A DNA stretch of 64,000 bases from Cyanophora paradoxa CCMP329. Lineage: Eukaryota; Plantae; Glaucophyta. Location: positions 77,656 through 141,655 of the forward strand of contig QPMI01000092.1 of assembly GCA_004431415.1 (NCBI GenBank), read 5' to 3'. Position 1 is the first letter of the stretch. Every line of letters begins with the position of its first letter. The notes below the pieces were generated by a model, which ran no database searches, was not told the origin of the DNA, and saw only the letters and a list, made by a program, of their open reading frames with translations. Below, piece after piece: positions 14,937 to 40,311 of the stretch. A program made the position numbers and the translations under genes.

Positions 14937-15251
14937 TGTTGTACACCCATGGACCCCGCTTACGGCCACTTCGCTTCGCTCCGGGCCGCGGTTCCATGGG
15001 TATTTAGCGTCTTCCCCTATCTAGATCGATCTGATTTTGCCGTGCGTGTACCAAAATCGTTTTACACGTTTCCCTCTGCTATTACGTGCCGGAGGGCGTG
15101 TGCGGGGGTACCTTCGGGGTTGAAAAATAAATTTCGATTTAGCTTCGAGGAGGTAGCTAACGGGAGAGCCTTTGAGGCTGATTGTGAATTCACTTTAGGG
15201 TATGAGCTTAGGCATTCTAGTGTCCACTGAGAGGCCGCACTAGAAATTCCC
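14937..15251 (+). repeat. Left terminal inverted repeat (315 bp)
   Basis: Reverse complement of 39982-40311 except for a 15-bp deletion (atcttggctgacacc) near the inner end. Confidence 0.95.
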
Positions 15252-15317
15252 TCACCCCGACCCTTTCTCAGCTTCTAGCATAGGAGCAGTGATCGCAATT
15301 TCATTTCAGAATGTTTT

Positions 15318-16698
15318 CTACTCGTCATCACTCATATAGACTTCAGGGCCCTCCTCTGGGCTGTCTGGCTCGTTCAAGTCAACCTCCATGTCCCGAGGGA
15401 TGTTCGCAGAAATGTGCGCGCGAATCATTGCAGTAGCGTCTCTGATGTCCATTCCCTGAACGTTGAATTCGACAGGTGCCTGAGCAGCCATCGCAGCTCC
15501 ATTCTGCGCTTGCATGACATGCCCTCGCACTCTGATGTTGGTCACAACTCGGCGAAAGAATGCATTCCAAACTTCCTCGGGAACGTCTGCTTGTGGAGTT
15601 AACTGCTGTGGATTCAGTTACACGTGGAGCGATCTTACCCTGCAGCGCTGGAATATCCATTATATATGTGTTCGAAACAATGACGATATCGGTTGCGTAA
15701 CACGGAACCCAGCCGTATAGAATTCGAAGTCGTTTCTTGCCCTTGTTGCACAAGTCGTTGAACATAGCGATTGCATACTCGCCATAATATTCGTCGAAGC
15801 CGAGAATAGGTTGGCCATTGAACTCATCAGTAAATTTTTCGTTGTCGCGAGGATTATTGCTGATCTTCGGCTTCCAGTAGACAGTGCCAGGCGGAAACAT
15901 GTTGATAGCTGTGGTTTTACCAGAACCAGGGTCGCCACAAATGAGATGAATTCTTGAGAAATGTAGCTTGGGCCTGGCCACAGCAAGGCATACTTCTGAC
16001 AGATAGGATCTGTATCTGAACGCTCTCGATCCGAACTCGTGGATAACTTGTTCGATTGTAGCTTGATTTTCGACGATGTATTCCGTTATTACGTGCAAGT
16101 CGGTTCGCTTCCCTCGGCAACTCAAAATTTGGCCAACCTCCTTAAAGTCGAAAATATCCGAAGTGAACGCATAATCACCCCGCATCGACAGCAGGTTAGA
16201 TCGGCGACCCTGATTCGACTGATAGGGCCATCGAATGTTGAGCCCTGAGTTTATAAACATTTTGGCCACACTGCTGAGGCGGTGCTGTTTGTTGAAGTAC
16301 AGGAAACCCTGGGCAAGTATTAAACTGAGAATGAAGATCAACTTTGCGGGAAATCTGATAAACCGTACCTGCAGTAACATAAACCATGGATTTTCTGGAT
16401 CAATGACTGCAATGAAGCAAGCATAACGGCATTTTCGCCGTGGTTCATTCGTGTTTTTATCGATGATCGGTTCGCCCGTATCTCTGTTGACAAGAACGCC
16501 AAAACGTTCCAGAAATTCTCTATCAAGTTGAGGTCCTCCCCAAAAGTGCTCTTGAGTGTCGGGATTAAAAATGATGGGCTCACGAATCTCGAAATGGAAT
16601 ACGTTCGACTTGTGTGTTGATTTGCAGTTCGCGGGCGGTATCACCGGCTGAGCGAAGGCCGGTTGCGGAGGTGCAGCCATAGCCATTGATCTGCGCAT
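15318..16698 (-). CDS. CRESS-DNA-virus Rep-like protein (degenerate HUH domain + SF3 helicase), complement(join(15318..15586,15639..16308,16369..16698)), ~422 aa
   Basis: Walker A GDPGSGKTT, Walker B region DEFNGQPILGFDEYYG, motif C IVIVSN. Splicing two GT-AG introns (60 and 52 bp) restores LLQGFLYFNK (motif II-like) and NAFFRRV (Arg finger). Alternative start at 16686. Confidence 0.82.
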
Positions 16699-17833
16699 TA
16701 GCGAATTATATTTCAGCGCCAAAAAATAATTACGATCTCAGAGCAATTTATACGAAGGGCCCCGACTGCGCTGATATTTGCCACTTTTTTGGAATTATTT
16801 TAAAAACATTTAAGAAATTATTATTTTCTGTACCCCCCTCCGCTTCGCCCCTCCCGCTCGCTTTGGCGCGCGCGCTCGGCCTGCCGGAAAAAGTGAAGAG
16901 CGCACATCTACTCGAGCAGAGAAGTGAAGTATGTTGCAAGTGAAGACTTTTCCGGGCACTGAGGCTTCTGGATGGCCGGGACGTAGTCAGTTTGAGAGCA
17001 GCAAAGGAGTGCACACATTTTGCAGCAGGCAGGCGACGCGCGAGACAGCTCTCTTGCCTGTGTAGGCGCTAGTGATGATGTTGCGCGGAGCTCCCTCCTG
17101 CTTCCACCGCCGAGGTGCGCTGCAAAGACGCGGGTGCGGCTTCTGGGTACAAGATCAAGGCCTTTTGCGGGTACCAGTGTTCAAAAATTTAAACGCAACT
17201 TCATGATTTTCGCCCTTCGAAATTAATAATACTTTGGCCACGGAGATCGCTGTGAAAGTTAATAAATATCTGTGAAATGGACATAATTATACTGGAATTG
17301 CGATAATTTTCGCATCCTAAAATACCGTTACATTTCCGAAATTGTTCTAGTTTGGGTCAGCCTTGGGAGCCTCTCAAAGCGCCGGACCGCCGCCGGTTGT
17401 TATGTTTTATTAATTATGGGAAATAATTTGGTACCGGGATGCTAGCCATTGGTTAGCAAAGTATTTGTTTGGCCCAGCCGGCGGCGCCGGCTCTCTTGCG
17501 ATTTGCCGACGCTAATTCTTAATTAATTAATTCATGTGCCTAGTAGGGTAGCTCGGCTAGAACTAGGTTACTAGTAGCCTGAGTGCCAGTGACTCATGAT
17601 CAGTGACGGTCGCGATCGGACAGTCCGGGAGTACTAGTGCACGTTGCCCGGCGAGTCGGTGTCACAACGGTAGTCATGTCACGATGCTACTATCATGCTA
17701 GTACTACTAGGGCTACGGTACTACGGATTCTTAGTACGGAATACGTAGCCTAACATACGGTGTGGCTCGAGCCTCGGCCCTCGGAGTGCAGGCCTAGGCC
17801 AGCGCTGTGCTGATCATCATGGCATGCTTGCAG

Positions 17834-18832
17834 GTGTCTTTGGGGCCGCATTTTTTCCACCGGTTGGTCCCCACTTCGAAGACAGATAAAAAACGGTTCA
17901 TGATCAATCGGTCAACTGCGCATGCCGGCCGGACTCGGGATCTGGAGTCTGCACTGACCGGACTCTGCCACTGAGTGCAGTACTAGTTCTACGGAACTTC
18001 TACCTATACAAAAAATATTTACTGCTAATTATATATAAGGCCGCTACTAGGCCCGCTAGTACCAGGCTACTACCAGCCAACTTGCAAGTGTCTTTAGGGC
18101 CGCATTTTTTTCACCGGTTGAGCCTCCACTTCCTAGACAGATAAAAAAAACGGTTCATGGACTAGCCTACTAACTCAGTGAGAGCCTGAGACTAGTACTA
18201 CTACGGTCACCGGGTACTACAAGAAACATACAGATAACTAATTATTATAGGTACCACTACCACCGGTAACAGCCTGGCCCGCTGGCCCACTACCGCCCAC
18301 AGCCTAGTCTCTCTACTAGCTATAGCTAGCTATATAGTGCACAGAGAAGGTAGGACTAATTATTATAAAAACTTAATAGCTACATAGTGCACATGCAGAG
18401 AAGGTAGGACTAATTATTATAAAATATTAATTTTTTTGTAAATCGGCGGCCAGCGTCGGCCACGGCGGCCTAGTCTCTCTACTAGCTATATATAGTGCAC
18501 ACTGCACAGACAAGGTAGGACTAATTGTTTATATAATAAGACAACATATATATATATATGTGTGTATGTAGGCTACAGTATAGTCTGTCTTCGAAGTGGA
18601 GTCAAACGGGCGAAAAAAAAGCGGCCCTAAAGACAAACAACTTGGAGACTCCTGCGCAGCTGCGCTGCGAGCCAGCGACTGTGCATGCTGTGCTACCATT
18701 AATATTGCAGCGTTAGCAACTTGAACATCTAGGCCTAGCCTCCTAGGCTATAGCTATGTACATATATATATATATATAGTCTGTCTAGGAAGTGGAGGCT
18801 CAACCGGTGAAAAAAATGCGACCCTGAAGACA
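17834..18832. repeat. Direct/inverted repeat cluster in the Rep-H3 intergenic region (copy B)
   Basis: Forward units at ~17834 and ~18088, inverted units at ~18584 and ~18780, a central triple repeat, and (TA)n tracts. Confidence 0.85.
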
Positions 18833-18972
18833 AGCTCCTAGCAGCTGCTAGCCGCCCGATGGCCTGCTCGGAGGAGGCTGCTCCTGCCTGGTGCACGACA
18901 TTCTTTCGTCGTCCTCATTCCTAGGTCTCGCCCTCTAGATCTCGTCCGACATCAGTGAAGGCAGCTGAAGGG

Positions 18973-19552
18973 ATGGCGCGCGTCAAAGCCACACCCAAGA
19001 AGAACACTGCTGGCAAGGCTCCTAGCAAGGAGGCAGTGCTTCGGGCCGAGAATGGTCGCAAAAATGGCTCAGCTGCAGCCTCTGCGACCAAGCCCGCTCG
19101 CTACCGCCCAGGTGCGACCCTTTGCGTCTCTCACGATGCGCAAACACTTAACTGATGTCTGTGCGCGCTCAGGGACCGTCGCTCTGCGCGAAATCCGGAA
19201 GTACCAGAAGACCACTGACCTGCTCATTCGCAAGCTGCCATTCCAGCGGCTGGTCAGGGAGATCGCTCAGCCATTGAGTAATGACGATCTGCGCTTTCAA
19301 GCAAGCTCCATTCTCGCGATTCAGTCAGCGGCGGAGGCCTTCCTGATCAGTCTGTTTGAGGATGCGAACCTGTGTGCCATCCACGCCAAGCGTGTGACTC
19401 TGATGGTGAAGGACATTCAGCTGGCTCGTCGCATTCGCGGAGAGATCTCGAAGATTGAGAAGTCTCAGCCTAAGCCTGCAGCTTCGACGTCTCCGGACGT
19501 AACCCCTATTACAGCTCTCGCGGCCAATTTAGGTGATCAGCTTCAGCTGTAG
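18973..19552 (+). CDS. H3: Divergent histone H3 variant, join(18973..19111,19173..19552), 172 aa
   Basis: H3 tail and complete histone fold; 61-bp intron gtgcga...ctcag splits the Gly codon of YRPG; lies between the TIRs. Confidence 0.93.
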
Positions 19553-19650
19553 CTGTGCAAGCCTTAAAGAAAACGTGATGATAGTTATCAATCAGAGATT
19601 GTGCGCGCTGAATTTCGAAAAAGTTTTCTGATTGTATCATTAATCGAAAC

Positions 19651-22600
19651 ATGAGCTCCCGAGCCGTAAGAAACAACCTTAGAACCGAAATCAATGAGCT
19701 TGCACAGAGGCTATATGAGCGAGGCTATATTAATGGCACGTACAGGAACTCGCTAGTGCGTCCTCTAACAAACACCAGGACCCACACTGACACACTCCGA
19801 TCCTCTCTAGCATCACTGCTCAGGCTGCAGGGACAGAAAGGCCTCAGCGTCCGCTGTACGGGCGAGACGTTGCCGCACATTTCGAGAGGGGGCAGGCTGC
19901 GCGAGCAGCAGCAACACAGGAGATTGATGACGTTGCGGAAGCTATATCAGGGCTATTCCGCGAGCAGGCGTCGGCCAACGTTAACGTAGTTCGCACCTAT
20001 ACTCACCACGAGTATCCAGGGCTGCTTTTCACAAAGGACGTGATAGAGATAGAGCCGACAGCTGATCCAGAGAGAGTGAAAGAATTGACGATAGCGTTTC
20101 TGAACGAGCTGCGAGTCCCAGAGAGGATTGGAGCTGCTGTTTTAATTCGCTTTCATTTTGAGAATTTCCACATGTACCGCACGCAGCTTGCGACCATAGA
20201 GGAGGGCACAATGCAGTCACTTCTAGCAAATCTCGCGGAGAAGATGGAGAGCTGGATGCTAGCGCAGCAGCCCTACGAGGACACTGATGTCTGGCCAGTC
20301 GTGCAGATCGAGGTGCTTATTGCAGAAAACGCAGCAGGGGCTCTGGGAAATGTACCTAAGCTGCCCTTTGGAGGGAAGGCCCTAACGATGAACAAGATCT
20401 ACTGTCCGATCTCTCCAGAGGACAACTGCGTGCTTGAATGCTTTGAGCATGAGAAGCTCAATCCCGGTCGTCTGAGCCTTGAGAGAGTATACAAGCAGCT
20501 TCAGCATGTTGATTACGGTTCGATTCGCACTCAGCTGGGGCTTCCCCGGGGACTAATTGCAGTCGATGAACCTACCATACGCAAGCTGAGCCAGCACTAT
20601 AGAATCGATGCAAGCATTTTCGAGTGGATCTCGGACCGCAGCGCGTCGAAGTTCAAGCTCCTATTTTCAACTGAATTTGGCTTTGAACGCCGAGCCCACC
20701 TTTGCGTGGTCGATGCTCACTGCTTTCTAATTAAAGATAAGAGAACGTGCGAGATGCAGAAGTGCAGAGCCTGCGGAAAGATGCAGTATGATTTGGCGAC
20801 TCACAAGGAAACCTGCCGCTTCTGCTATACCTGCCGCTGCGCCTACAATCCGAAGGAGGACCATGCAAGCAAATGCGATGAAGCAGTGAGGAACAAGAGC
20901 GTTATTGAACGCAAAATCAAGCCATGCGAGCCCGAGGAAGAGTTTACAGCCCTAAACTCAGTCATAGCGGCAGACTTTGAAACGTTTGCACCCAACCGCA
21001 CGACCCACGTTCCGTACGCAGTCGATATGGACATAATTAGCAAAGGAGAGATCACGGAAACGAAATCGTTCTGCGGCCCCGAAACTCTGGAACAGTTTAT
21101 GCTCTGGCTTGACGACTGGAAAGAAAAGTCGACTCTAGTATTCTTCAATGGCAGCGGCTTCGACTTGATATTTATCTATAAGTGGCTTGTCCAGAACCGC
21201 CCAGACTGCCAGGTCAAGGTGATGCGCTCATCCGGAAAGATCAAGAGCATGGAGTGGAAGACGCTGGCCGGGGGAGAGTTTAAAAGCTTCGATCCCTGCT
21301 TGCACATACAGGGCTCACTGCGGCAGGCTGGGAAGGACTACGGGTGCACCACCTTGAAAGGGGATTTTGACCACCGAAAGATAAGAGCTTGGGATGACGT
21401 TGAGATTCACAAGGAAGCCTGGAGCGAATATTTGAGAGCTGACGTTCGGTCAATGACTGAGCTGTATATTAAGTACGCTCGGACATGTTTTGATCTATTT
21501 GGGATAAATGTGAATTCGAAGCGCACCTTGACAGCATCGGCGATGGCTTTTCAGATCCACAGGCAGCTAATGAAAACGGAAGTGCTGCTACCGAAATACA
21601 AGGAGGACCAGATTTTTCGCAAAGCGATTTACGGAGGGCGATGCCTACCATTCAAGCGGAAGTTTGTCTCGAAGGTCCAGATGATTACTTGGTAGATCTG
21701 GATGTGGTCTCTCTCTATCCGACGGCTATGTACTTTAATTACTTTCCCACTGGTAAATTTAAATGCATCACCGATCAAGCGGAGCTAGAGCGATTCCGCA
21801 AGTTTATGCTGAGCAGGAAAATGGAACAGCTGTTTGTTGCAAAGATTAGCGCTAAAATTCCTCAGGATCTTGTGCTCTCTCCCCTTCCCGCCACGAAGCC
21901 AATCTGGGATGGTCTAACTTGAAGCCTATTGAGAAAGAAATGTACACCTCAGTCGATATCTACCGGGCGATAGCACTGGGAGTTGAGATCACAGAGCTGC
22001 ACGAGGTGTACTTGTTTGAGGGCAAGGAACGAATGTTCAAAGATTACATTGAGAAGCTGTACTGCATGAAAGCACGCTCACGAAAGGAACCGCCCAGTAT
22101 GCTACGGCGAAGATCCTCTTGAATGGGCTCTATGGAAAATTTGCTCAGCGTCCAGTAATTGAGACAACCGAGCTGGTCTCAAACTACAGACGATTCAAGG
22201 AGATACAGCGATCATCGACGATTACGGACATTGACATAGAGAATGATACGAGAATGTACGTCACATTTGAGATCCCTGAGTATAGGCGGGATGCCTGCGT
22301 TTCGAAGCCTTGCTTTGTTGGTGCATTTATCCTCTCCTACAGCCGCGAAATCATGGATCGATTTTTGGTGAGGATGAACTCATATAAGGACGTAGAGGCA
22401 ATGCCATACTACACAGATACAGATTCTATGATCGTGCACAGGAGGTTTGCTGAGCTTCTGAAGGACTGCATGAAGCAGCCATATTCAGTTGAGGGAATGT
22501 CAGAGGAGGAAGGGAATAGAATGATCTGCGAGAGCGAGCTGGGGAAACTAGATTATGACATCCAAGGGAGAATTACTGAGGCTTACTTCATTGGTCCAAA

Positions 22601-23021
22601 GGTTTATTGCTGCTACTTTGTGAGGTCGAATGGGGAACCAGATCTGCATGTGCGGGCAAAGGGAATTCCGAAGAGCTGGATAGAGGAGAACTGGCTCCCG
22701 AGTGATCCAGTGGCAAAGAAGGAATCCCTTGATAACCGAATTGCTTTGGAGGCCTTCACAAGGATGCTAGAGGAACGTTATCAGCCGCAGTGCACACTAG
22801 ATTCTAAACTAGCGCGTGTTTTCAAGCCCAATGGAAAGCAACGCGAGGCTGGGATCGACTTCAGCTCTATAATTCAGATTCCATTCAGCCGAATACTCAA
22901 CAAAACGGAGTATACGAAACGAAAGATTATTCCTGACGAATATTACAGCACGGTTCCCCATGAATACGTTCGAGCAACAGGCGGCAGCCAAGAAGGCAAC
23001 CTTGACTTTGTCGATCTCTGA
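19651..23021 (+). CDS. polB: Protein-primed family B DNA polymerase, consensus 1124 aa (four 1-bp deletions in this copy)
   Basis: All Exo and Pol motifs present. Taking the longer homopolymer at each A/B discrepancy gives 3375 nt in both copies. N-terminal EDNC...HC region and Cys/His cluster. Confidence 0.93.
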
Positions 23022-24177
23022 TGCTTACTATGATCCTGAGACAGGGCTCCAGTCAGCTGCACGGATAGCTAAGAAGCTGAAGATGCCGCTGGCAAGGGTG
23101 CAGGCAGTGCTCGCGAAGCTGTCCACAGCTCAGCGCTTTGCAAAACCGGTGAAAGAGAAGCCGTACACCAGTATCACGTATAATCACCCAGAGAAGTATT
23201 ATGAAGTGGATTTGATCGATGTCAGTCCCTATGCTAGAAGCAACCGCGGAGTGCACTTCATCATGAACGCTGTGGATGTTGTAACCCGGAAAGCGTACAG
23301 CATTCCAATGAAAAATAAAAGCGAGGGGACCCTGCTTTCGACACTGCGGCAGCTCATAGCAAGCTTTCCGGTGAAGCCCGATATCATTCAGACGGATCAG
23401 GAATTCAAGGCTACAGCTGCAACTATGCTAGCAGCCGAGGGGATAAAGCACAATGCTGTCGAGGCGCATCGTCCGCAGGCAAATGGAAAGGTAGAGCGCT
23501 TTAATGGTACTCTGAAGCGGATCATTGCAAGATACATGGAGGCGTACGACACCGACCGATATATCGATAAGCTGCCATCCTTTCTGCGCAACTATAACAG
23601 CTCCGAGCATAGAGCTATTAAAACTACGCCTGATGAGGCAGCAAAGAACCCAGCACCTGTTATTGCAAGAAACGATTATCAGAGAGAGGCGTACGAGCAG
23701 CAGCACTATCTGAAAGAGGCCGAGTTCAAGGTAGGAGACTCTGTGCGCGTAAAGCTGGCGAGGAACACGTTTGATAAATCAACGAAGCCGACGTACTCAA
23801 AAGAAGTCTATCAGATTGAAGCTATAGGAGGATTTGGCCCTCTGCTCAAGTTCAAGCTTGCTGGATACGACAAGGAGGTGAGCTACCAGCAGCTGCTGAA
23901 AGTGCCAGCAGAGACAGAGCAGCGGCGGGCTGGAAGTGCTGCACAGAATGCCCTTCGCCGTCGAAAGCAGGAGCTGAATTTGATGCAAGAGAATCTGGAC
24001 AAGTCAGACATCGAAAAAAATAAGAGACTTCTCCGGGTTCAAAAGCAGCTGCTTACTGCTGGAACCAAGGCGTTAAATCCAGGAGGTTCGACAGCTCGGT
24101 GGTACACGTCTTTTGAAAATGCGAAGGCCTCTTATTCTGCGCCCAGCAACACGAGGACACTTAGACCGAGACGCTGA
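22960..24177 (+). CDS. Retroviral-like (rve/DDE) integrase, 405 aa
   Basis: DDE triad in EVDLID / QTDQEF / KVERFN; YNSSEHRAIKTTP and FKVGDSVRV typical of Polinton integrases; consistent with the 6-bp TSD. Confidence 0.93.
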   Translation: MNTFEQQAAAKKATLTLSISDAYYDPETGLQSAARIAKKLKMPLARVQAVLAKLSTAQRFAKPVKEKPYTSITYNHPEKYYEVDLIDVSPYARSNRGVHFIMNAVDVVTRKAYSIPMKNKSEGTLLSTLRQLIASFPVKPDIIQTDQEFKATAATMLAAEGIKHNAVEAHRPQANGKVERFNGTLKRIIARYMEAYDTDRYIDKLPSFLRNYNSSEHRAIKTTPDEAAKNPAPVIARNDYQREAYEQQHYLKEAEFKVGDSVRVKLARNTFDKSTKPTYSKEVYQIEAIGGFGPLLKFKLAGYDKEVSYQQLLKVPAETEQRRAGSAAQNALRRRKQELNLMQENLDKSDIEKNKRLLRVQKQLLTAGTKALNPGGSTARWYTSFENAKASYSAPSNTRTLRPRR

Positions 24178-24451
24178 TTCCAGCGGAAGCTAGGGCACTC
24201 TCAAGTACAGAGATTCGATTTATCAACCGAGTGCGATAGCGCTTGTTTGCCTCGTTGTGAGCATCTTTGTGCGAAGCCTGATATCTGCTGCTCTGCTCAA
24301 TGTGTCTCTGGCGATATGCAGGGTCCTCGCTGTATTTTCTGCGGTGGTACTCTGCTTTCTTCTCCCTTCTTGCTTGAATAATCTCTGGCGTAAGAGCAAT
24401 CGGTTTGCGCCCTGGTTTGCGACGCTGCGCTGACTCCATTCCCTCGTTCAT
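24161..24451 (-). CDS. Small basic helical protein, possible DNA-binding regulator (96 aa)
   Basis: RRKPGRKP and a bZIP-like basic stretch HNEANKRYRTRLINRISVLESAL; AT-rich upstream region. Confidence 0.65.
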   Translation of the reverse strand: MNEGMESAQRRKPGRKPIALTPEIIQARREKKAEYHRRKYSEDPAYRQRHIEQSSRYQASHKDAHNEANKRYRTRLINRISVLESALASAGISVSV

Positions 24452-25488: not shown

Positions 25489-25497
25489 CTTATTTTA

Positions 25498-26319
25498 TTA
25501 AGATAAGAATTTAATACGTTTCTTTTTAGGGATAATAGGGGATTGCTCTTGTTTCGATTCTTCTTCTTTTTGTCTTAGCCCGAAGGGCAAGGAGCCCTCC
25601 TTGGGCGACGCCCATTTCGTAAAACGAAAACTCTTATCTTCAACAGCCTTATCAACATACCATGCAGTATCATACTTGGTTCCATCCAGCACAATGCACT
25701 GATAATTATGCGCCCACTTTTCAAACATGTCTATAAACTCATCCTTTGGTAGGTGGCTAAACTCTCGATAGATAGCCTCAAGCTCTGTGTGATTAGAATA
25801 GCTAAAGAAAAAACAGTAATCAGCATTAGAACGAATCGATTGACTAAGAGCTGTTAACTTTTGGGTCATTAGAATAGTTGAAATGTTAAAATGCCGCCCC
25901 TGAGTGAAAAGACGATTAACAACCTTGCTATTTCGAAGATCAACTGTTTCGGAGGCGGCAACAAGATCATCAAGCACAAGCAATATCTGCGGTGATCTCT
26001 TTTTATTTTCAATCAGACTGCGCTGAGAATCTATAATTTCTGCAACGATTGCTGGGATAAAGTCATCATAGATCTCCTTAGTTATTGCAGCATATTCACC
26101 ATTAAATTTGGTGGCTGTGAAAACAACAACCCTATCAATTTTTGGATACAGTGATCTCAAAAGATGTTTGGTGCAGTAGTACGATTTGCCGCTATTACTT
26201 TTGGAAATAAACAGCCCTTTGAAGGGAACTTTGATATCGCCTGGTTGAAACTGAGATAAGTCATCAGTGTTTTCGCTATCCATCAAAAATAAAGTCGCAG
26301 AATTGAGAGCTGATGCCAT
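25498..26319 (-). CDS. Genome-packaging ATPase (A32/FtsK-HerA family)
   Basis: Walker A variant SKSNSGKS, Walker B LLVLDD, FTQGRHFNISTILMTQ. Confidence 0.92.
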   Translation of the reverse strand: MASALNSATLFLMDSENTDDLSQFQPGDIKVPFKGLFISKSNSGKSYYCTKHLLRSLYPKIDRVVVFTATKFNGEYAAITKEIYDDFIPAIVAEIIDSQRSLIENKKRSPQILLVLDDLVAASETVDLRNSKVVNRLFTQGRHFNISTILMTQKLTALSQSIRSNADYCFFFSYSNHTELEAIYREFSHLPKDEFIDMFEKWAHNYQCIVLDGTKYDTAWYVDKAVEDKSFRFTKWASPKEGSLPFGLRQKEEESKQEQSPIIPKKKRIKFLS

Positions 26320-31122: not shown

Positions 31123-34100
31123 ATGTCCTACATCTTAAAGAAGCCAGTGCCACTTCGTAAAGCTCCAGATCTCGTGGATGATCGGCATATAAATATTCGC
31201 GTATTTGGGAGTACTCTAATTGAGTACAATGCTGACAAAGATATACACCAGACTGAGTTAAATCGCCCAGCTGCATTAATTCTGCGCAACTCACATGTTG
31301 GCGCCCCGGATATTGCACAGAGATTTTGTCTGGGTCCAGCTGAGAATTATGTTGCTGAAATAGTCGGATCCAGGGCTTTACCGCGTCACCTACGCATTGC
31401 CTCTTCAGGCACAGTTTCCAAGTATGATTCTGGTAGATTAATATTTAGGCTTCAAAATGATAGAGGGGTCCACACATCAGCTCTACGCCTTATTGATGAA
31501 TCCAATGCCATCACGAACAAGACAGCTGCTCAAATTACAGGGCGAATCCTCCTTGGTGAAGACGCAGGGATATCAGTGCTATCATCGCAAATCCAACCAT
31601 TTCCCTGGGATTTACTTTATACAGCTGCACGAGAAACAAATATTTTATACGGATTTGATGTTAATCAAATTGATACAGAGCCTGCTACCAGGTTAGATAT
31701 TCCTGGATGCACCTTTGGCTCTATCCTGATTGAGGGTGACAGACACCTGCTCCCGGCATTGCATGATAGATATGACCTAGGGCTTCGCACCAGGCAGTGG
31801 CGAAATATTCATGGAACAAATATTTATCAGGACGGTAAGAAAGTAAGCACTGAAGAGGAGGTGATCAACATTTTCAACTACTACTTTGGACCTATTGTCC
31901 CTATACCACCTATACCACCTCTTCCAGGGCTACCAAAGCCGCCAACCCCGGATGGACCAGGTCGAGAGCGAGTTGCTGATGAAACAATCCCATTTGGTCA
32001 AAATATTATATCGTGGGAGGCTGTCAGGAATCGCCCAGTGATTGAACCCTATAAGCATCCGCATGAAGAATACCTACCGCCTGATATAGAAGTTTTTCCA
32101 CTCGAGATGTACACAGAGCCGGAAGAGCAGTTACTTCCTGATGGCTTAGATGTTCAAGAACTCGAGTACGAGCAGCCTGTGATTCCGCATGAGCAGCTGC
32201 TTCCAGACGGCTTTGAACCTATTCTCTTCCCCTTGGAGTTCACCGTAGACTGGGAATCAATTACGAACAAACCTGAGATTTTTCCGCCGGAGGAACACAG
32301 ACATGATTGGGACGAGATTGATAATAAGCCTTTAAGGTTTCCCCCAGAGGATCACAGGCACGATTGGGAAGACATTGATAACGTTCCTCCGGAGTTTCCT
32401 CCAGAAGACCATAGACATAATTGGGACGAAATCGATCAACAGCCTACCTTCGCATCCGCAGGTAATATATTAACAGACTTTCCACATGGTGTAAGTCTCT
32501 ATCAGAACATTGAGATACCAGAAAGATTACAATTAAATGACTACTACGTAAGTCGCAAAGGAATAGATGCAGGCACCACTATGGAGGGTGAACTTTATAT
32601 TAGACCACCTACAAGAAATGTAATATTACCACTTGGTGGTGGCATAGAAATTAAAGACACTAAACCAGGAATCTACTTAACCAATTACTACGTGGATGAT
32701 GTCCCGATGACAGGAGGTTTAATATCTCTCCCTTCTGATCCAGCAAACTTTGATAACAAAGATGCTACTCTACAAATCAATGTGACTAATGTTAGCGATT
32801 TCGATGGTTCAAGGCCAAAATTAATATTCAGCCGTGAGCAACTCGCAGCAGAAACCCTTTTAGGAAATCGTGACGATTATAAACAGTGTGAGGTAGCATG
32901 GATAAAAACAAATTATAATGGTGGAGTTCCTGAGGGTCTTTTAGAAATCAATCAGAGAGCCTCAGCGAAAAACATTCATAACGAAAATATTTCAAGAGTC
33001 GTAACAGAAGATTATTTTAGATGGGATAATATCCCTGACGCACCCGAAAAATTCCCACCCTCAGATCATGAACATGTAAAAGCAGATATTACAGATTTCG
33101 CCCATACTCACACAAAAGACCAAATAACAGATTTCGCACACAAACATGTCAAAGCAGATATTACGGATTTCGCACATGAACACGTCAAAGCCGATATTAC
33201 AGATTTTGCCCATACTCACACAAAAGACCAAATAACAGATTTCGCACACAAACATGTCAAAGCAGATATTACGGATTTTGCACATGAACACGTCAAAGCC
33301 GATATTACAGATTTCGCCCACACTCACACAAAAGACCAAATAACAGATTTCGCACACAAACATGTCAAAGCAGATATTACGGATTTTGCACATGAACACG
33401 TCAAAGCCGATATTACAGATTTCGCCCATAGGCACGATTGGGACGAAATAGATCAACAGCCAGTATTTGCACAATTGAATGCAATCGGAAATGTTTTTAA
33501 TGGAGTCACACTTTACCAATCGATTAATACACCTGACAGGTTATATTTGAATGATCATTACGTTAGTCTCAATGGATCGTTTACAGGTCAAGAAGGCACA
33601 CCGATGGTGGGAACTCTCGCTGTAAGATTACCCAGGGATCCAATCGTAAATGGAGTGTATAGTGGTGATTTCAACGTAGGAGTAAACGATACTTTCCCCA
33701 GTATTTATGTTACGAATTATCACCCAGGGGAAACAGGACAAGTAGCGGATTTTTCAGCAGCTATTCAAATTAATGTAACAGATCAAAGCGCATATGATGG
33801 AGCAAGACCTAAAATAGTATTCACAAGGGAGAAAGTTGTTAACTATCTTCCCGTTGCGGGACAACCCACAGATGATCACGGAAAATGTGAGATGGCGTGG
33901 ATTAAAACGACATCAGGTGGCGCCTTAGAAGTCAATCAGAGAATGGCGGCGAAAAACTTACACAATACAACCCTTTCAGGAGTGGTTACAGATGATTACC
34001 TAACCAATAAAGGATATCTTACCACCGCAGATTTAAGCAGTTATGCAACGGATGCAGAATTAGCGGCGGCACTTGCGAATTACTTACCTCTTACAGGTGG

Positions 34101-36945
34101 GACTGTTAATGGAACCGTTAACGCTACCACTTTACAAATTGGCGGAACCACAATACCAAAAGGTTTCGAATTCGATCAATTAGACACTGTTTCAACAGAT
34201 AGAAGCGCAAATAATTGGACTGTTAATTGGACAGGACAAAGAACAGGACAAACAGGATGTTACACAAACCCACTAAATGATGAAGATTGCAGCGGATGTT
34301 TTATGCGTTGGACAGTTCCAGAAGGTATGAAATCGTTTTACATTCAACTTTTACTTTGGGATAATTGTAGATATTTCGATATATACGGACAAACCGTGAA
34401 TAACCATCAACATTTCCTTAGACGCGTTAATAACTATCAAGCTGTTCAAGTTGGCGCCGTTCAAGATGGAACGTATATGGCTATTGCGTTTACTTCTGTA
34501 AATTGTGAATTTTACAGTAAAATATATGTTCAAGGGCGAAAAGGTCGCATTTATCTAACGGGTGTTTTCGGTTGGAGTAGACAAAGAGCAACTGATACGG
34601 ATGTAGGATTAGTGCATTATGATAATATCGCTTTTAATCCTGTCGGCAAATATTCAGATTTCGATGTAGTGAGTGGTTGGAATAGCACTGGTGTAGCGTT
34701 TGTTGGAAGTTGGCAGACCGATTGGAAACCTACAACAGATAACCCAGTAGCAGGATTTTATAGCAGCACAACAGACGATGCAACCAGTAGTGACTACGCG
34801 CAAGTTGTAGTGCCGACGGGAATGAAAACATGTCACATCCAATATTTATGTTGGACGAATGCAAGATACTTTGATATTCAGGGATTCCGCAACAGTCGAT
34901 GGAATCATATTATGAGAGTGAATACTTACCAGAATGTATCAAACACAGCCGATTCATTATGGCATGACAGTTTATTATGGACTTCCGTATTTTGTGGGAA
35001 TTTTACACATATTAGAGTTGTGGCAAGAAAAGGACGTGTTCATATTGGATATTTTGCATGGACGAAAGAAGTAGGAAGAACAGCACCAGCAAATGGAATG
35101 ATAAGTTGGGATAATATTTACAGTCGTCCGGCATTAATTACAGCCGCAGACCTTCCAGGAACGGCAACATGGGCAATTGATACATGGTTAAAATCAGCAG
35201 ACAACTACTCGCGGTTTTATTTTGCAAATGCAAATGCAACATACATTAGAGGTAGACCTAATAACGATAATGCGTGTGTTGTATTCAGAAACTCAGCAGA
35301 TTCTACAATTTTACAATCATATGAAAATGGCAACCTTGCGGTTACTAATACTTTGATTGCTCCGACCATAAGTGCAACAACCATAGATGTTGCAACATTA
35401 AAAAGAAATGGTTATGAAATTCCGAAATTCTACGGTTTTGATGACACAGTAGCAGGTGGTGCTTATCATTCATCGGGCGGAACTTGGTCGGTTGGGTATG
35501 GAACAGCTTGGGATCCAGGATATAATTATGGTAGTCATGTGTATAATAGTGAAAGTCAAGATGAAGTGTCTACAACAACTTGGATTCAGTATACAATTCC
35601 CACCGCATTAGTGAATGGAACAGCATACCTTACACATTTACCATGGTATAATTGCCGTTACTTTGAGATTTGGGGAGTCCGTAGTAATGGGGCAATAGTA
35701 TTTATTACAAGAGTAAATAACTATCAGCCACATGATGGTAACGCAGACGGTCACCACAACGGGTTAAACAATGTCCCAATTTTCCTTGCCGGTCGATTTA
35801 CTCACCTCCGTATTTATCCCAGAGTTGGAAGAGTTCACATTATGGGTATTGGTTTTACGCACGATCGAGCAAATAGTAGTTCATATGGTGGTCACACAGG
35901 TTACATTTCTTGGGATAACATTTATAGTAAGCCAAATCTACTTACACCGAGTTTAGTTGGAAACATTACAGGTTTTGATACTTGGAGTGGAACAGGTAGT
36001 GGTGGTCTATCATTTAGCGGATCTTGGGTATCAGGTTGGACGGCTACTAATGATAATCCTGTGGACGGATTTTATAGCAGTATTGAAGGAGAAACGACGA
36101 GTAGTGATTGGGCGCAAATCGAAAAACCAGCAAATATGAAAACATGTCACGTTCAATACTTGTGTTGGACAAATACAAGATATTTCGATATTGGAGGTTA
36201 TCGATCGGGTAGATGGTTCCACATTATGCGAGTAAATACTTACCAGGCTATCTCAAATTATGGAACTTCTGATTATCACGATGGGTTGGCGTGGGCTTCC
36301 TTTGCTTGTGATAACTTTTCACACGTAAGATTTGTTGCAAGTAAAGGACGGTGTTACATCGGTATGGTTGGATGGACAAAAGAAAAAGGAAGAACCACAC
36401 CAGCAAATGGGACGATCAGTTGGGATAACGTTTTTAGCAAACCAAATAGCGCAACTTGGGCTACCGGAACTTGGATAACATCAACTGATAATTATGAAAG
36501 AGTATATTTCGGTTCAGCATCAACTACATATATTAGAGGACATGCAACAACAGTAGTAGAATTTAGAAATACGATAGATACACATGTAGCATTTATAAAT
36601 GACGATGGTTACATGTGGGTTAGAAACTATCTCGGACAAGGTAGCGATAGAAGATACAAAACCGATATTAAAAAGATAACGGGCGCTCTTTCAGCAATTG
36701 AAAAGTTAGAAGGAGTGAGTTTTAAACGAATCGGAAGTGAAAAAGACGGAACAAGATTAGGGTTAATTGCGCAAGATGTGCAACAGGTTATACCAGAAGT
36801 TGTTAGAGCAAAACAAGATGATGGCTACTTAGCTCTCGAATACACGGGTTTAATTCCGGTTCTCATAGAAGCTGTTAAAGAATTATCTAAGAAATGCAAG
36901 GGTCTACAAGATCAAATAGATCAATGGCGCAGCCAGGCTGCTTAA
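31123..36945 (+). CDS. Giant fibre/spike protein with HxH repeats and C-terminal peptidase S74 intramolecular chaperone, 1940 aa
   Basis: W..I.NKP..FPP..H.H repeats, 12-aa HxH repeats, four RYF[DE]I domains, SDRRYKTDI...GLIAQDVQQVIPEVV...LIEAVKEL. Confidence 0.88.
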   Translation: MSYILKKPVPLRKAPDLVDDRHINIRVFGSTLIEYNADKDIHQTELNRPAALILRNSHVGAPDIAQRFCLGPAENYVAEIVGSRALPRHLRIASSGTVSKYDSGRLIFRLQNDRGVHTSALRLIDESNAITNKTAAQITGRILLGEDAGISVLSSQIQPFPWDLLYTAARETNILYGFDVNQIDTEPATRLDIPGCTFGSILIEGDRHLLPALHDRYDLGLRTRQWRNIHGTNIYQDGKKVSTEEEVINIFNYYFGPIVPIPPIPPLPGLPKPPTPDGPGRERVADETIPFGQNIISWEAVRNRPVIEPYKHPHEEYLPPDIEVFPLEMYTEPEEQLLPDGLDVQELEYEQPVIPHEQLLPDGFEPILFPLEFTVDWESITNKPEIFPPEEHRHDWDEIDNKPLRFPPEDHRHDWEDIDNVPPEFPPEDHRHNWDEIDQQPTFASAGNILTDFPHGVSLYQNIEIPERLQLNDYYVSRKGIDAGTTMEGELYIRPPTRNVILPLGGGIEIKDTKPGIYLTNYYVDDVPMTGGLISLPSDPANFDNKDATLQINVTNVSDFDGSRPKLIFSREQLAAETLLGNRDDYKQCEVAWIKTNYNGGVPEGLLEINQRASAKNIHNENISRVVTEDYFRWDNIPDAPEKFPPSDHEHVKADITDFAHTHTKDQITDFAHKHVKADITDFAHEHVKADITDFAHTHTKDQITDFAHKHVKADITDFAHEHVKADITDFAHTHTKDQITDFAHKHVKADITDFAHEHVKADITDFAHRHDWDEIDQQPVFAQLNAIGNVFNGVTLYQSINTPDRLYLNDHYVSLNGSFTGQEGTPMVGTLAVRLPRDPIVNGVYSGDFNVGVNDTFPSIYVTNYHPGETGQVADFSAAIQINVTDQSAYDGARPKIVFTREKVVNYLPVAGQPTDDHGKCEMAWIKTTSGGALEVNQRMAAKNLHNTTLSGVVTDDYLTNKGYLTTADLSSYATDAELAAALANYLPLTGGTVNGTVNATTLQIGGTTIPKGFEFDQLDTVSTDRSANNWTVNWTGQRTGQTGCYTNPLNDEDCSGCFMRWTVPEGMKSFYIQLLLWDNCRYFDIYGQTVNNHQHFLRRVNNYQAVQVGAVQDGTYMAIAFTSVNCEFYSKIYVQGRKGRIYLTGVFGWSRQRATDTDVGLVHYDNIAFNPVGKYSDFDVVSGWNSTGVAFVGSWQTDWKPTTDNPVAGFYSSTTDDATSSDYAQVVVPTGMKTCHIQYLCWTNARYFDIQGFRNSRWNHIMRVNTYQNVSNTADSLWHDSLLWTSVFCGNFTHIRVVARKGRVHIGYFAWTKEVGRTAPANGMISWDNIYSRPALITAADLPGTATWAIDTWLKSADNYSRFYFANANATYIRGRPNNDNACVVFRNSADSTILQSYENGNLAVTNTLIAPTISATTIDVATLKRNGYEIPKFYGFDDTVAGGAYHSSGGTWSVGYGTAWDPGYNYGSHVYNSESQDEVSTTTWIQYTIPTALVNGTAYLTHLPWYNCRYFEIWGVRSNGAIVFITRVNNYQPHDGNADGHHNGLNNVPIFLAGRFTHLRIYPRVGRVHIMGIGFTHDRANSSSYGGHTGYISWDNIYSKPNLLTPSLVGNITGFDTWSGTGSGGLSFSGSWVSGWTATNDNPVDGFYSSIEGETTSSDWAQIEKPANMKTCHVQYLCWTNTRYFDIGGYRSGRWFHIMRVNTYQAISNYGTSDYHDGLAWASFACDNFSHVRFVASKGRCYIGMVGWTKEKGRTTPANGTISWDNVFSKPNSATWATGTWITSTDNYERVYFGSASTTYIRGHATTVVEFRNTIDTHVAFINDDGYMWVRNYLGQGSDRRYKTDIKKITGALSAIEKLEGVSFKRIGSEKDGTRLGLIAQDVQQVIPEVVRAKQDDGYLALEYTGLIPVLIEAVKELSKKCKGLQDQIDQWRSQAA
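33067..33426 (+). repeat. Coding tandem repeat, 10 x 36 bp with a 108-bp higher-order period
   Basis: (HEHVKADITDFA-HTHTKDQITDFA-HKHVKADITDFA)x3 + HEHVKADITDFA. Confidence 0.95.
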
Positions 36946-37322: not shown

Positions 37323-38171
37323 ATGACCGAGTACAATCGGGTCCAACTACCTATCTACTCGCTCGGCTCCCCAGCCATCCATATGAGGCAGCACGAAGTT
37401 AGCGATGCCATTGCTGGATTAGAGTCCACTGAGCGGCCAAATTCAACTAACGCCTTTGATCAGCGATCGGTGATTCGGTGTAAAGAATTGCGCGCAGATA
37501 AAAACTCTGGGGTTGTCAAAACAACGCGATTACTAGTTACAAATGCCAATTTCTCACAGCCCATAACAGGGGGAGTTGATTCGTACAGTGTTGACCTCCG
37601 AAGCATAAACTATGATCAAAACACTGCTGCCCTCACTGTGCGCTCCGGAGGAGCGGCTATTACCGGTGCTTGCCGAGTTAGTGGAGGGCTATCATCATCG
37701 ATTGCCATCAATGATGTCCCAGACTTTTCATTAGAGAATGCTGAAAATCGTAAACGAGTTCGCATGTATGTACCCTGCTGTGACCTCCCCTATGCACAAG
37801 CTCTAGTAGAAGTTGAAATTACAATAGCTAATTCCAGCACACCAAATGGTCTCGATGGAGAGAGGTTGCTTTCAAACAGAGAAATCCCCAAGGCACTTCA
37901 ATCGCTCTGTCAAGATCAAAATGATCAAATAGGCCATGTTTACACGTTCTTTGTACAGGGTCTAGGACACGCAGGACGTGGATACGTTGTTCGTAATATT
38001 AATACAAGGCATCTTTTCGATTTATATGCTACTGCTATAGGCAGATATTCTATCCTAATCATTGGCTATCGCTCCGATGTGGCTGCATCTGTGGCCACTA
38101 GAGGACTGAATCCTGATCCGGCACTGAATAATATGTATGAGGAAGGCAATCCGGAAAATCCTATACCTTAA
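37323..38171 (+). CDS. Hypothetical protein, paralogue of 38201-39034 (possible structural/fibre-associated)
   Basis: Shared blocks GLESTE, DKN.GVVKTT.L.VTNANF, RSGGA, R.YVP. Confidence 0.75.
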   Translation: MTEYNRVQLPIYSLGSPAIHMRQHEVSDAIAGLESTERPNSTNAFDQRSVIRCKELRADKNSGVVKTTRLLVTNANFSQPITGGVDSYSVDLRSINYDQNTAALTVRSGGAAITGACRVSGGLSSSIAINDVPDFSLENAENRKRVRMYVPCCDLPYAQALVEVEITIANSSTPNGLDGERLLSNREIPKALQSLCQDQNDQIGHVYTFFVQGLGHAGRGYVVRNINTRHLFDLYATAIGRYSILIIGYRSDVAASVATRGLNPDPALNNMYEEGNPENPIP

Positions 38172-38200
38172 GTGGAAAGTTTTATCTCCTGTTTTCTAAA

Positions 38201-39034
38201 ATGGAAGCTGTTGAAAGAATAGTAGTTCCAACTTTAACTCTTGCGGCCCCAGTAAATCACGTCCTGCAGCATGCGATTTCCGACGACGTGCCTGGCCTAG
38301 AGTCTACAGAGCAGCAGCCAACTCTTAACACTTTTCGGGAGAATCACATATTACGTTTAGGAGAGGTTAGATGTGACAAAAATAATGGAGTGGTCAAAAC
38401 AACAAATCTTGTCGTAACAAACGCAAACTTTAATGCACATTATGGGGATCCTGATAGCTATGACGACGCTAACAAGGTTAACACGTTTACCTACGAATCA
38501 AGAACAGGGGCTGTTACCTGCAGGTCCGGAGGTGCTTATATTGGAGATGGCCTGAGAGTGGGTGGAGCTGCTTGCGCCCCTATATTTGTAAATGATCAAC
38601 CTAACCCTGAAAACACTAATGAAAGAATCAGAACGTATGTTCCTGGTATGAATTTGCCTTATATTATCAAAGTCTTCACGCTAAACATAAATGAGCAAAC
38701 ATCGATCGTAGATAACGTTCAGCCACTCGGAAATCATTTCAAGAGTGTTGTTGATATTCCCCCGGATATCTACTTCCTTTGTAGGAGAAACGATGCTCTC
38801 CGGCCAAACATAGCTGTTTTAATTAATCCTATTGACAATTTTGGTGTCGCTTTCCATTCTACTCCAGTGGGGGTTGAAGATTACCAGTTTATTGTGAGGG
38901 CTACGCTTATGGGCGCCTACAAAATTATTCTATTTGCCGAAAGAACAGATGTGATTGCAAATGGTGTTAAGTACGGTGAGACCTTCAATTCGAATCGTTA
39001 TTTCCCAATTGGTGGGGCCGATCCTAATCCCTGA
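38201..39034 (+). CDS. Hypothetical protein, paralogue of 37323-38171
   Basis: Same shared N-terminal blocks; divergent C-terminal half. Confidence 0.75.
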   Translation: MEAVERIVVPTLTLAAPVNHVLQHAISDDVPGLESTEQQPTLNTFRENHILRLGEVRCDKNNGVVKTTNLVVTNANFNAHYGDPDSYDDANKVNTFTYESRTGAVTCRSGGAYIGDGLRVGGAACAPIFVNDQPNPENTNERIRTYVPGMNLPYIIKVFTLNINEQTSIVDNVQPLGNHFKSVVDIPPDIYFLCRRNDALRPNIAVLINPIDNFGVAFHSTPVGVEDYQFIVRATLMGAYKIILFAERTDVIANGVKYGETFNSNRYFPIGGADPNP

Positions 39035-39068
39035 CTGAGCCCCGAATTATTTACTGAGACCTCTGATA

Positions 39069-39314
39069 ATGGCCTCATGTCTTGCAGGGCTGTTTGAGTT
39101 GCTACATCATTTCCATGCACACTCCCGCTTGCAATCCCAGTGCTGCACAGCTGACCTAGATCTTTCTTTTGGTGGTGATCATGACAGCAACAGCGCCAAC
39201 CGTGAAGCTGAACTCGATGCTCTTCAGCACGTAGAAGATCCAGCACCGCCCGGTGTGCACTACCAGAGGCCTCGGACGCCGTCAATAACGTACCATCTAT
39301 ATCAGGATGCTTGA
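39069..39314 (+). CDS. Small hypothetical protein (81 aa)
   Basis: ATG-started ORF filling the gap between two genes; no motif. Confidence 0.4.
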   Translation: MASCLAGLFELLHHFHAHSRLQSQCCTADLDLSFGGDHDSNSANREAELDALQHVEDPAPPGVHYQRPRTPSITYHLYQDA

Positions 39315-39409
39315 AGACTCGCTGAGGCGTCCTGGACATCCTTTTGTTTGCTTTTGAAAAAAAGAAACGGGGACAGCCAGCCGTTTCAAACACATAGATA
39401 GCTTTTTAT

Positions 39410-39913
39410 TTACGCCCTGTTTTCAATTGGGAAATTAAGACGTAGAAAAGGCCGGTCTGCCTCTGCAGTGTGCTCAAGTAGATACTGATCTCGAGCTCTG
39501 GCTGCTTCCTCCGCTGTGGAGAAGCATCCGACATCGATTGTTTTTCTATTTTTGCCAATGGTAGCAACCCATCTGCTTTTCGATCTGTTGTAACTCACTC
39601 CAAGGAATCCGCTGGTGTTATTCGAATTCTTGTCTCGATGCATTCGGTGCTGCTGTTTTGTTACGAACTTTAGATTATCTCTGCGACAATCCAGTTTATC
39701 CCCGCTGACACAGAGGATGCTATGATCTGCAGGAGCTTTCCCCTTCACCAGATCTCTAAATTTCTTATGCCATCTCTCTTCAGGGTGGAATGCTACTGGA
39801 TAGCCATTCGAGTCTATGTAGAACCTCAGACCAGAGAATTTCTCCTCGTCATCTTTCGAGATTAGCACTGAGTGCACTGTGTTTGGTGTCTTCACCTGAA
39901 TTGCAGAGTCCAT
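39410..39913 (-). CDS. HNH-AP2 domain protein with degenerate nuclease site
   Basis: NNTSGFLGVSY...RWVATI...VGCFSTAEEAARARD (AP2); GDKLDCRRDNL (HNH-like, without the usual DH and N). First ATG at 39913. Confidence 0.82.
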   Translation of the reverse strand: MDSAIQVKTPNTVHSVLISKDDEEKFSGLRFYIDSNGYPVAFHPEERWHKKFRDLVKGKAPADHSILCVSGDKLDCRRDNLKFVTKQQHRMHRDKNSNNTSGFLGVSYNRSKSRWVATIGKNRKTIDVGCFSTAEEAARARDQYLLEHTAEADRPFLRLNFPIENRA

Positions 39914-39981
39914 GTATCTTCCTTTCGATAATATAAGAGATTGTGTTCTCTTTATGTCATACACACCCCTCATATTAAACC

Positions 39982-40311
39982 GGGAATTTCTAGTGCGGTG
40001 TCAGCCAAGATGGCCTCTCAGTGGACACTAGAATGCCTAAGCTCATACCCTAAAGTGAATTCACAATCAGCCTCAAAGGCTCTCCCGTTAGCTACCTCCT
40101 CGAAGCTAAATCGAAATTTATTTTTCAACCCCGAAGGTACCCCCGCACACGCCCTCCGGCACGTAATAGCAGAGGGAAACGTGTAAAACGATTTTGGTAC
40201 ACGCACGGCAAAATCAGATCGATCTAGATAGGGGAAGACGCTAAATACCCATGGAACCGCGGCCCGGAGCGAAGCGAAGTGGCCGTAAGCGGGGTCCATG
40301 GGTGTACAACA
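39982..40311 (-). repeat. Right terminal inverted repeat (330 bp)
   Basis: Ends ...gggtgtacaaca; reverse complement of the left end. Confidence 0.95.

Follow-up and report, generated by a model that had tools for sequence, protein, structure and literature searches.

The 64,000-nucleotide stretch of the Cyanophora paradoxa CCMP329 genome analysed here (contig QPMI01000092.1, positions 77,656 to 141,655; referred to as the window, whose numbering is used throughout) contains at 14937-40311 a 25,375-bp endogenous Polinton-like virus, bounded by terminal inverted repeats (TIRs) and a target-site duplication (TSD). [quoted passage not shown] The arm genes were likely captured, and they are probably accessory genes that would help the provirus to persist and to be reactivated in the host nucleus. 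The combination of an H3 and a CRESS Rep in a 25-kb integrating virus appears to be unreported. The core family is already known, and for each type of cargo there is a precedent, namely apvRep of avipoxviruses, U94 of human herpesvirus 6 (HHV-6) and the single viral H3s.

The ends of the element were identified exactly. Both TIRs are complementary over their full length, identical 6-mers stand directly outside them, and the GC content of 0.46 inside the element is set against 0.63 and 0.66 in the flanks. A TSD of 6 bp is also that of Polintons. In short-read contigs, the empty target site, with the flanks joined over a single 6-mer, was found in at least two of four runs for the left end (X2 and X17) and in at least two for the right end (X1 and X2). 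The 17 called genes fill 85% of the element, and the Pfam domains identified inside the TIRs are DNA_pol_B_2, rve, Pox_A32, Histone, Patatin, Peptidase_S74 and HNH_3 with AP2. An earlier note on this DNA had claimed that exact ends, TIRs and a 6-bp TSD enclose the listed genes, and that the H3 and the Rep-like gene are cargo of the element; both claims were borne out, since the two genes lie inside an integrating double-stranded DNA (dsDNA) virus bounded in this way. Folding of the TIRs was no better than that of shuffled sequence (z -0.66), and no Rfam family matched anywhere in the element.

The Rep gene was recognised by the match of its read-through open reading frame (ORF) to the Rep of porcine circovirus 2 (PCV2; E 1.3e-8) and by a HMMER search, which identified 127 relatives of 22-35% identity (best E 5.6e-10). 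A Viral_Rep domain was present in 30 of the 32 relatives scanned, and nine of ten that were looked up lie on contigs of 2.1-3.5 kb, the size of a CRESS genome; a word-index search with Rep gave no match among 1012 candidates. Two introns with GT-AG ends are predicted, at 16368-16309 (60 nt, in frame) and at 15638-15587 (52 nt). Against a profile of the 127 relatives, the doubly spliced protein scored 149.4 bits, the singly spliced forms 146.8 and 140.5 and the unspliced form 138.0. Removal of intron 2 restores the arginine finger, and the gain from intron 1 is small.

In the nuclease domain, the element Rep has V, L, N and R in place of E (112 of 113 relatives with a residue in that column, the denominator used throughout), H (115/115), Y (121/121) and K (116/121). 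The helicase motifs are kept, namely the Walker A lysine (127/127), the Walker B DE, the motif C SN and the arginine finger RR (125/125). The His, Tyr and Lys of HUH motifs II and III are thus absent, and the set of superfamily 3 (SF3) helicase motifs is complete, with the arginine finger present only after the predicted splicing. The earlier description as a spliced CRESS-Rep-like helicase therefore holds for the PCV2-type match and for the helicase motifs, the splicing being predicted from GT-AG ends and restored homology; the replaced nuclease residues had been missed. To judge from these motifs, there is about an even chance that Rep has lost its nuclease and would work as an oligomeric SF3 helicase or DNA-binding protein, accessory to the family B DNA polymerase that is primed by protein (pPolB) or to latency. 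An active rolling-circle initiator, by which the element would replicate as single-stranded DNA (ssDNA) circles and represent a hybrid, was rejected as hardly credible. The whole three-domain Rep layout is retained and a DY pair follows within a few residues of the place where motif III would be expected to end, but the motif II His, the upstream Glu and the motif III Tyr and Lys are replaced whether intron 1 is spliced or not, and the nonanucleotide of CRESS viruses was found neither in the arm nor in the TIRs (7 matches in the window versus 3.4 expected).

Statements on published work in this paper refer to parts of the articles and of their supplements. For avipox apvRep and HHV-6 U94, the HUH site was described to be inactivated with Walker A and B kept (Kinsella et al. 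2023, PMC10193959), so that in these cases, too, a dsDNA virus has captured the Rep of an ssDNA virus. The element differs in its carrier, a 25-kb integrating protist virus, in the two predicted spliceosomal introns of its Rep and in the arginine finger, which is not fully kept in the apvReps. With apvRep and U94 as the first two, the element Rep would be the third independent instance in which a dsDNA virus has kept the helicase of an ssDNA-virus protein and lost its nuclease. It points to a circovirus-like virus, not known so far, that once shared the host. A further CRESS-type Rep with intact motifs (P0170) was found on a 21.4-kb JGI contig; it could belong to a larger element or to a host chromosome.

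The second gene of the arm codes for an H3 that shares about 75-84% identity with single-fold cellular H3s in its fold and diverges in its tail. With the usual H3 residue numbers, alignment to the canonical tail revealed K4, K9, K14, K18, K27 and K37 to be kept, and T3->V, S10->N, S28->N and K36->T to be changed, so that both ARKS contexts (K9 and K27) are altered. The tail has normal length, loop 1 is one residue longer, a C-terminal extension of 37 aa is present, and the chaperone site reads SSIL. The claim of a spliced histone H3 stood as to the histone, which lies inside the TIRs, and the intron is predicted from GT-AG ends and restored homology. No H4, H2A or H2B was identified by Pfam inside the TIRs.

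The H3 shares the features of the single viral H3 class, being a lone H3 with a fold identity within 73-87% and a permissive chaperone site. Six lone viral H3s were listed by Talbert et al. 2022 (PMC9145170), including that of the small Manila clam xenomavirus with a SAIL site, and the site was given as SAIL or TAIL in other single viral H3s (section 9); neither polintons nor virophages are mentioned in that article. The H3s of xenomavirus, DSLPV1 and sylvanvirus share with the element H3 the 73-87% fold identity to host H3, the xxIL site and an altered tail. Xenomavirus moreover resembles the element in its small size and in carrying a gene for an SF3 helicase; in the corresponding preprint (10.1101/341131), SF3 helicases are described for circular elements. 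These viruses have circular or nucleocytoplasmic large DNA virus (NCLDV) genomes and H3 tails that are normal or N-extended, whereas the element is of the integrated preplasmiviricot type, with a rewritten tail of normal length, a C-terminal extension and a predicted intron.

Of the 120 matches listed, 5 begin with MARVK, 4 of these being C. paradoxa proteins, and 2 have the GEISKI extension, both from C. paradoxa. The odd H3 features are shared by seven gene models of C. paradoxa, which fall into five clusters (P0033, P0034, P0044, P0057 and P0064) and lie on different contigs: tig00021038_g17551, tig00000523_g1854, tig00020876_g14837, tig00020693_g13009 and tig00020516_g9959, the last with three identical records. 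The names of these contigs were not found in the searched portions of the supplement of Bellas et al. 2023. These MARVK-type models, taken for variants of the host, may belong to viruses, and the same may hold for some "host H3 variants" in protist proteomes. In a tree of 26 rows (27 chosen, one dropped by its pattern), the element H3 groups with two C. paradoxa types (SH-aLRT 91), and in a tree of 148 rows from an incomplete search no branch was starred. That several glaucophyte Polinton-like virus families carry spliced MARVK H3s as anti-silencing histones, with nucleosomes in which K4 is kept and methylation at K9 and K27 is resisted so that a provirus escapes heterochromatin, is somewhat unlikely. 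If true, small integrating preplasmiviricots with histones as a weapon would be met as a group for the first time, and in the element the H3 would be accompanied by a helicase derived from an ssDNA virus. Contigs of IMG/VR with H3-like proteins (34 loci, many from giant-virus metagenome-assembled genomes) were compared with the element over 10 kb around the H3. None of the 34 matched pPolB, integrase, ATPase, major capsid protein (MCP) or Rep there, and the matches obtained were one to the fibre chaperone and a weak one to a penton candidate.

Between the divergent Rep and H3 genes, the spacer contains CTAG at 13.2 per kb, versus 1.7 elsewhere, and no ATG-started ORF of more than 56 codons. 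Of its four 52-bp units, two are direct and the following two inverted, and several direct repeats of 28-36 bp are also present. No Rfam family and no CRESS nonanucleotide matched in the spacer, which, as the simplest guess, may be a promoter acting in both directions or a cis-element. A direct service of the H3 to viral DNA, either in packaging of the virion genome or in a centromere-like partition of an episome on the repeat-rich spacer, is quite improbable. It would suit the extra loop-1 residue and T107->A, both of them CenH3-like, the structured 2.27-kb spacer directly upstream, and the fact that no other core protein was identified. CenH3 proteins are marked by loss of Q68, F84 and T107, a longer loop 1 and low identity to H3. 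The element H3 was rejected as a CenH3, since it retains Q68 and F84 and has a fold close to that of ordinary H3, though T107 is lost and loop 1 is longer. The lack of other core histones inside the TIRs and the position of the gene, which lies beside those for replication and apart from the structural block, also speak against packaging or partition.

The copy number of the arm was estimated from contig depth, a rough proxy, relative to a 6.2-kb unique contig (depth 37, 77 and 21 in runs X1, X2 and X17). In these runs, relative depth was 2.3, 1.7 and 2.2 for the Rep contig, 2.5, 1.8 and 2.1 for the H3 contig and 11.8, 8.0 and 9.7 for the integrase region; the TIR value of 12-13 indicates about 6 elements. 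Contig depth thus points to a multi-copy core and a Rep-H3 arm in only about 2 copies. An X17 contig revealed that the majority variant rejoins the element copy at 19562, 10 bases past the H3 stop. Among the pPolB differences listed between element copy and majority variant in 19877-21569, 17 of 22 are synonymous, which fits a family that is under selection and is represented here by two variants.

A second, truncated copy of the virus stands at 1-7468 of the window. It differs from 16925-24391 in 7 of 7471 columns, all of them single-base indels in G/C runs, with each copy short of a base present in the other. It ends at a 27-bp tandem duplication (7470-7523) followed by a truncated host repeat. 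Probably it belongs to a tandem duplication of 16.9 kb that comprises host repeat and the left half of the virus, so that the arm may derive from one insertion. The two copies of the arm are probably one insertion plus this local tandem duplication. In the window, pPolB is broken near 19829, 21673, 21886 and 22085. The extra base at 21673 is present in contigs of three of four runs (X1, X2 and X17), and short-read contigs add G or C at many homopolymer runs of the flanks too. Given the lack of substitutions, these breaks are likely errors of an assembly that under-calls homopolymers. The earlier claim of an intact element is not confirmed in that form; its ends are perfect, but pPolB has four breaks, and intactness is inferred.

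That the gene set is an assembly chimera, with a host H3/Rep region joined to a collapsed repeat family, is very unlikely. Such an error might be suspected from the under-called homopolymers, from the multi-copy family and from arm junctions that short-read contigs leave unbridged. However, contigs of X1 and X2, starting inside the TIR end, agree with 15222-18130 without a single difference, contigs of X17 overlap over the stretch 19562-19591, the arm depth of about 2 in three runs agrees with the two assembled copies, and these copies carry independent errors.

The arm might also be a passenger from a host chromosome or from another mobile element, carried in one virus copy without a viral role, which we regard as improbable. 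This origin would fit its roughly 2 copies, likely from one event, the return of the majority variant to the element sequence just past the H3 stop, and a spacer unlike the compact rest of the element. It would also fit the introns, as Rep and H3 are the only 2 of 17 called genes with predicted spliceosomal introns and such endogenous viruses were described to be without introns (Bellas et al. 2023, PMC10120064). On the other side, the arm depth is flat at about 2, so that a donor locus of at least 95% identity could not be accommodated, and multi-copy relatives of the H3 exist. GC content at third codon positions is 0.54 for Rep and 0.65 for H3, like the viral replication genes (0.54-0.60 for pPolB and integrase) and not like two flank ORFs (0.73 and 0.77). 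Finally, although Rep and its relatives share no more than 22-35% identity, its reading frame is open and its helicase motifs are kept, which implies long selection somewhere.

Several observations weigh against a role of the arm genes as captured accessories of the virus. The arm is present in about 2 copies versus 8-12 for the core, and most family copies are without it or have a version less than 95% identical. This indicates a variable accessory arm of a known family, not a lineage-defining gene set, and was overlooked when H3 and Rep were first counted into the gene set, although both do lie inside the TIRs. No single contig spans the junction of TIR and Rep by 31 letters, nor that of H3 and pPolB, and the linkage of the arm rests on the assembly, in which spacer, H3 and pPolB occur twice in succession. 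The support for the H3 group is below the threshold of 95, and long-branch attraction is possible. The IMG/VR and JGI scans gave no example of the gene set in a second host or family. By the pattern of pPolB exonuclease and helicase described by Krupovic et al. 2024 (PMC11161782), a pPolB with exonuclease motifs has no evident need of a helicase.

With the arm genes taken as captured accessories, the following course may be proposed. As known for such families, the rve integrase would insert the linear genome with formation of the 6-bp duplication, pPolB would replicate it from the TIRs by protein priming, and the A32 ATPase would fill a double-jelly-roll capsid bearing the fibre. The H3 would be spliced and made by the host machinery and would pair with host H4 through its conserved fold. 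Its nucleosomes, with K9 and K27 in non-ARKS contexts and K4 kept, would be poor substrates for repressive methylation. Rep would no longer nick and would act as an accessory to pPolB or in latency, as with apvRep and U94. An H3 that counters silencing in this manner, host-made, paired with H4 and resistant at K9 and K27, is proposed tentatively, on the grounds of its tail residues. In C. paradoxa, CpG methylation was reported to be 32%, with methylated genes silent and viral genes enriched among them, and in two other protists 5-methylcytosine co-locates with H3K9me3 and H3K27me3 (Sarre et al. 2025, PMC12344493). For a provirus controlled in this way, an H3 keeping K4 with altered ARKS contexts would be fitting.

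Many protist genomes are full of endogenous Polinton-like viruses, which are kept silent. An H3 encoded by a 25-kb provirus and changed at residues of repressive and mitotic marks would offer a direct test of histone-based counter-silencing, likely in a cultured alga. If the proposal is true, the pairing in the arm would equip a small integrating virus against silencing by host chromatin. Since Rep and H3 both have predicted introns, surveys of Polinton-like viruses that are blind to introns may have missed or split such cargo.

Table 1. Features of the element and its surroundings (positions in the window).
Feature	Position	Strand	Basis or remark
Second, truncated copy of 16925-24391 (spacer, H3, pPolB, integrase)	1-7468	+	99.9% identical, 0 substitutions
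GC-rich host repeat (insertion target), about 12.6 kb, split by the virus; zinc-knuckle ORF	7497-14936 and 40318-45453		about 10 copies from contig depth
Left TSD, 6 bp	14931-14936		same bases as right TSD
Left TIR, 300 bp	14937-15236	+	complementary to right TIR, 300/300
CRESS (circovirus-type) Rep-derived protein, 418 aa if spliced	15318-16686	-	PCV2 Rep; HMMER relatives
Non-coding spacer, 2.27 kb	16700-18972		CTAG-rich; four units of about 52 bp
Histone H3 variant, 172 aa if spliced; one predicted intron, 19112-19172 (61 nt)	18973-19552	+	Pfam Histone E 5e-38
pPolB, in pieces in the window	19651-23021	+	DNA_pol_B_2 matches; motifs
Retroviral-type (rve) integrase, D-D-E present	22960-24177	+	rve_3 E 1.2e-7; motifs
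A32/FtsK-type packaging ATPase	25498-26319	-	Pox_A32 E 1e-9; Walker A/B
MCP, predicted double jelly-roll	26320-27708	-	64% to P0001; Atlas neighbours with Capsid_N; Foldseek
Two divergently oriented ORFs, penton candidates	27751-29622		no library match
Patatin-like phospholipase	29614-31098	-	Pfam E 1.3e-25; catalytic motifs
Fibre-like protein, 1940 aa, 36-bp repeats, C-terminal Peptidase_S74 chaperone	31123-36945	+	Pfam, PHROGs, repeat search
Two paralogous ORFs, 35% identical to each other	37323-39034	+	no significant library match
HNH_3 + AP2 homing-endonuclease-like gene	39410-39973	-	Pfam
Right TIR	40012-40311	-	complementary to left TIR, 300/300
Right TSD	40312-40317		same bases as left TSD

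To judge from its genes (Table 1), the core of the element belongs to those Polinton-like viruses of the glaucophyte Cyanophora that have already been catalogued. Of the features by which Polinton-like viruses are recognised, those found were the MCP, identified indirectly, an A32/FtsK ATPase, an integrase with TIRs and a size within 14-40 kb. Endogenous Polinton-like viruses of C. paradoxa were mentioned by Starrett et al. 2021 (PMC8502044), and 366 MCP matches in two clusters outside the named virus groups were reported for its genome (Bellas et al. 2023, PMC10120064). Among 156 glaucophyte elements in Table S6 of Bulzu et al. 2025 (PMC12220804), the A32 ATPase was listed for 139, lipases for 89, rve for 85, pPolB for 49, HNH_3 for 40 and Peptidase_S74 for 37, and all nine protease columns are 0 when the row is read against the header. 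The element shares with these C. paradoxa viruses the core domains, the lack of a protease and an MCP 64% identical to a listed representative, and differs from them in its histone and CRESS Rep, neither of which was reported. The word "histone" is absent from the main text and the searched portions of the supplement of Bellas et al. 2023. In the parts of Bulzu et al. 2025 covered, neither PF00125 nor Viral_Rep was found, the histone mentions examined being 3'-untranslated-region stem-loops and a methyltransferase label, and Table S6 giving selected domains only. The earlier proposal of an undescribed lineage does not hold, as the MCP family is in Table S2 of Bellas et al. 2023, the same core is in Table S6 of Bulzu et al. 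2025 and the arm is variable. What stands of the claimed novelty is the combination. In the open-licence literature (PMC and bioRxiv full text, supplements partly covered), neither a histone protein nor a CRESS Rep was found for any Polinton-like virus; the core is catalogued, and the cargo types are known from other viruses, namely xenomavirus, apvRep and U94.

Two related groups were considered for the core and rejected. With Polintons/Mavericks (Krupovic et al. 2024, PMC11161782), the element shares pPolB exonuclease and vOTU-like motifs, the rve integrase, the ATPase, a jelly-roll capsid and long TIRs. In its pPolB, the Exo I-III and vOTU-like motifs are present. Of the Polintoviricetes combination of a pPolB with terminal protein (TP), vOTU, exonuclease and palm domains and an rve integrase, the parts from vOTU to palm and the integrase were found on sequence motifs. 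The element differs by an MCP nearer to NCLDV-type profiles, by the additional fibre, patatin, H3 and Rep, and by the lack of a detected Ulp1-family protease, for which the element is not regarded as a classical Polinton. For this protease, no Pfam match among the element ORFs and 0 motif matches in six frames were obtained, though a very divergent one could escape. With mavirus-like virophages (endogenous mavirus-like elements, EMALEs), pPolB, rve integrase, a stand-alone SF3 helicase and the state of a TIR-bounded endogenous virus are shared. The mavirus pPolB is without most of the exonuclease domain (Krupovic et al. 2024), whereas Exo I-III are present in the element, whose helicase is derived from a CRESS Rep; the C. 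paradoxa MCPs, moreover, stand outside the named virophage columns of Table S4 of Bellas et al. 2023. A mavirus-like virophage was rejected on the exonuclease motifs, the lack of a protease and the placement of the MCPs. The missing Ulp1-type protease together with the kept pPolB exonuclease thus indicates that the core is a Polinton-like virus, neither a classical Polinton nor a virophage. Scans of IMG/VR with the MCP, the MCP alignment, pPolB and the spacer motif, and of JGI metagenomes with the MCP alignment, identified no relative of the element.

For the MCP, the only relative among 7989 scored candidates is P0001, from a Cyanophora paradoxa EukProt record. In Table S2 of Bellas et al. 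2023 (PMC10120064), where P0001 is listed, HHpred matches it at 98.47% to the MCP of an iridovirus. The Atlas neighbours of the MCP bear Capsid_N, and in a Foldseek search with a low-confidence AlphaFold model (pLDDT 37) capsids rank first. A divergent double-jelly-roll capsid protein is therefore predicted. The two ORFs next to it were taken as penton candidates by motif style only; they are not detectably alike, neither matched in Pfam or PHROGs, and the one searched in PDB gave no match. The capsid module claimed earlier is thus supported in its MCP and ATPase and not confirmed in its penton.

The fibre gene contains ten 36-bp repeats and an internal duplication of about 300 bp (34822-35114 and 36136-36428, 73%), and its summed contig depth is very high; a hypervariable receptor-binding gene across the family is suggested. 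For the two paralogous ORFs downstream of it, no significant match was obtained in Pfam, PHROGs or the other library scans.

The host repeat split by the virus has long minus-strand ORFs with a CCHC zinc knuckle, and may represent a mobile element of no known class. When its frames were scanned with Pfam, the zinc knuckle was the only match, and no reverse transcriptase, integrase or recombinase was identified. It is partly covered by contigs from runs guessed to be RNA. Two such runs gave no cover over the element stretches compared, which is neutral as to expression and splicing. Just past the right end of the host repeat, a GC-rich tandem array with units of about 140 bp extends over 45600-47100. 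The region 53800-60500 is a host gene region with cysteine-rich Ephrin_rec_like repeats, in which a unit of about 1 kb is present in three copies.

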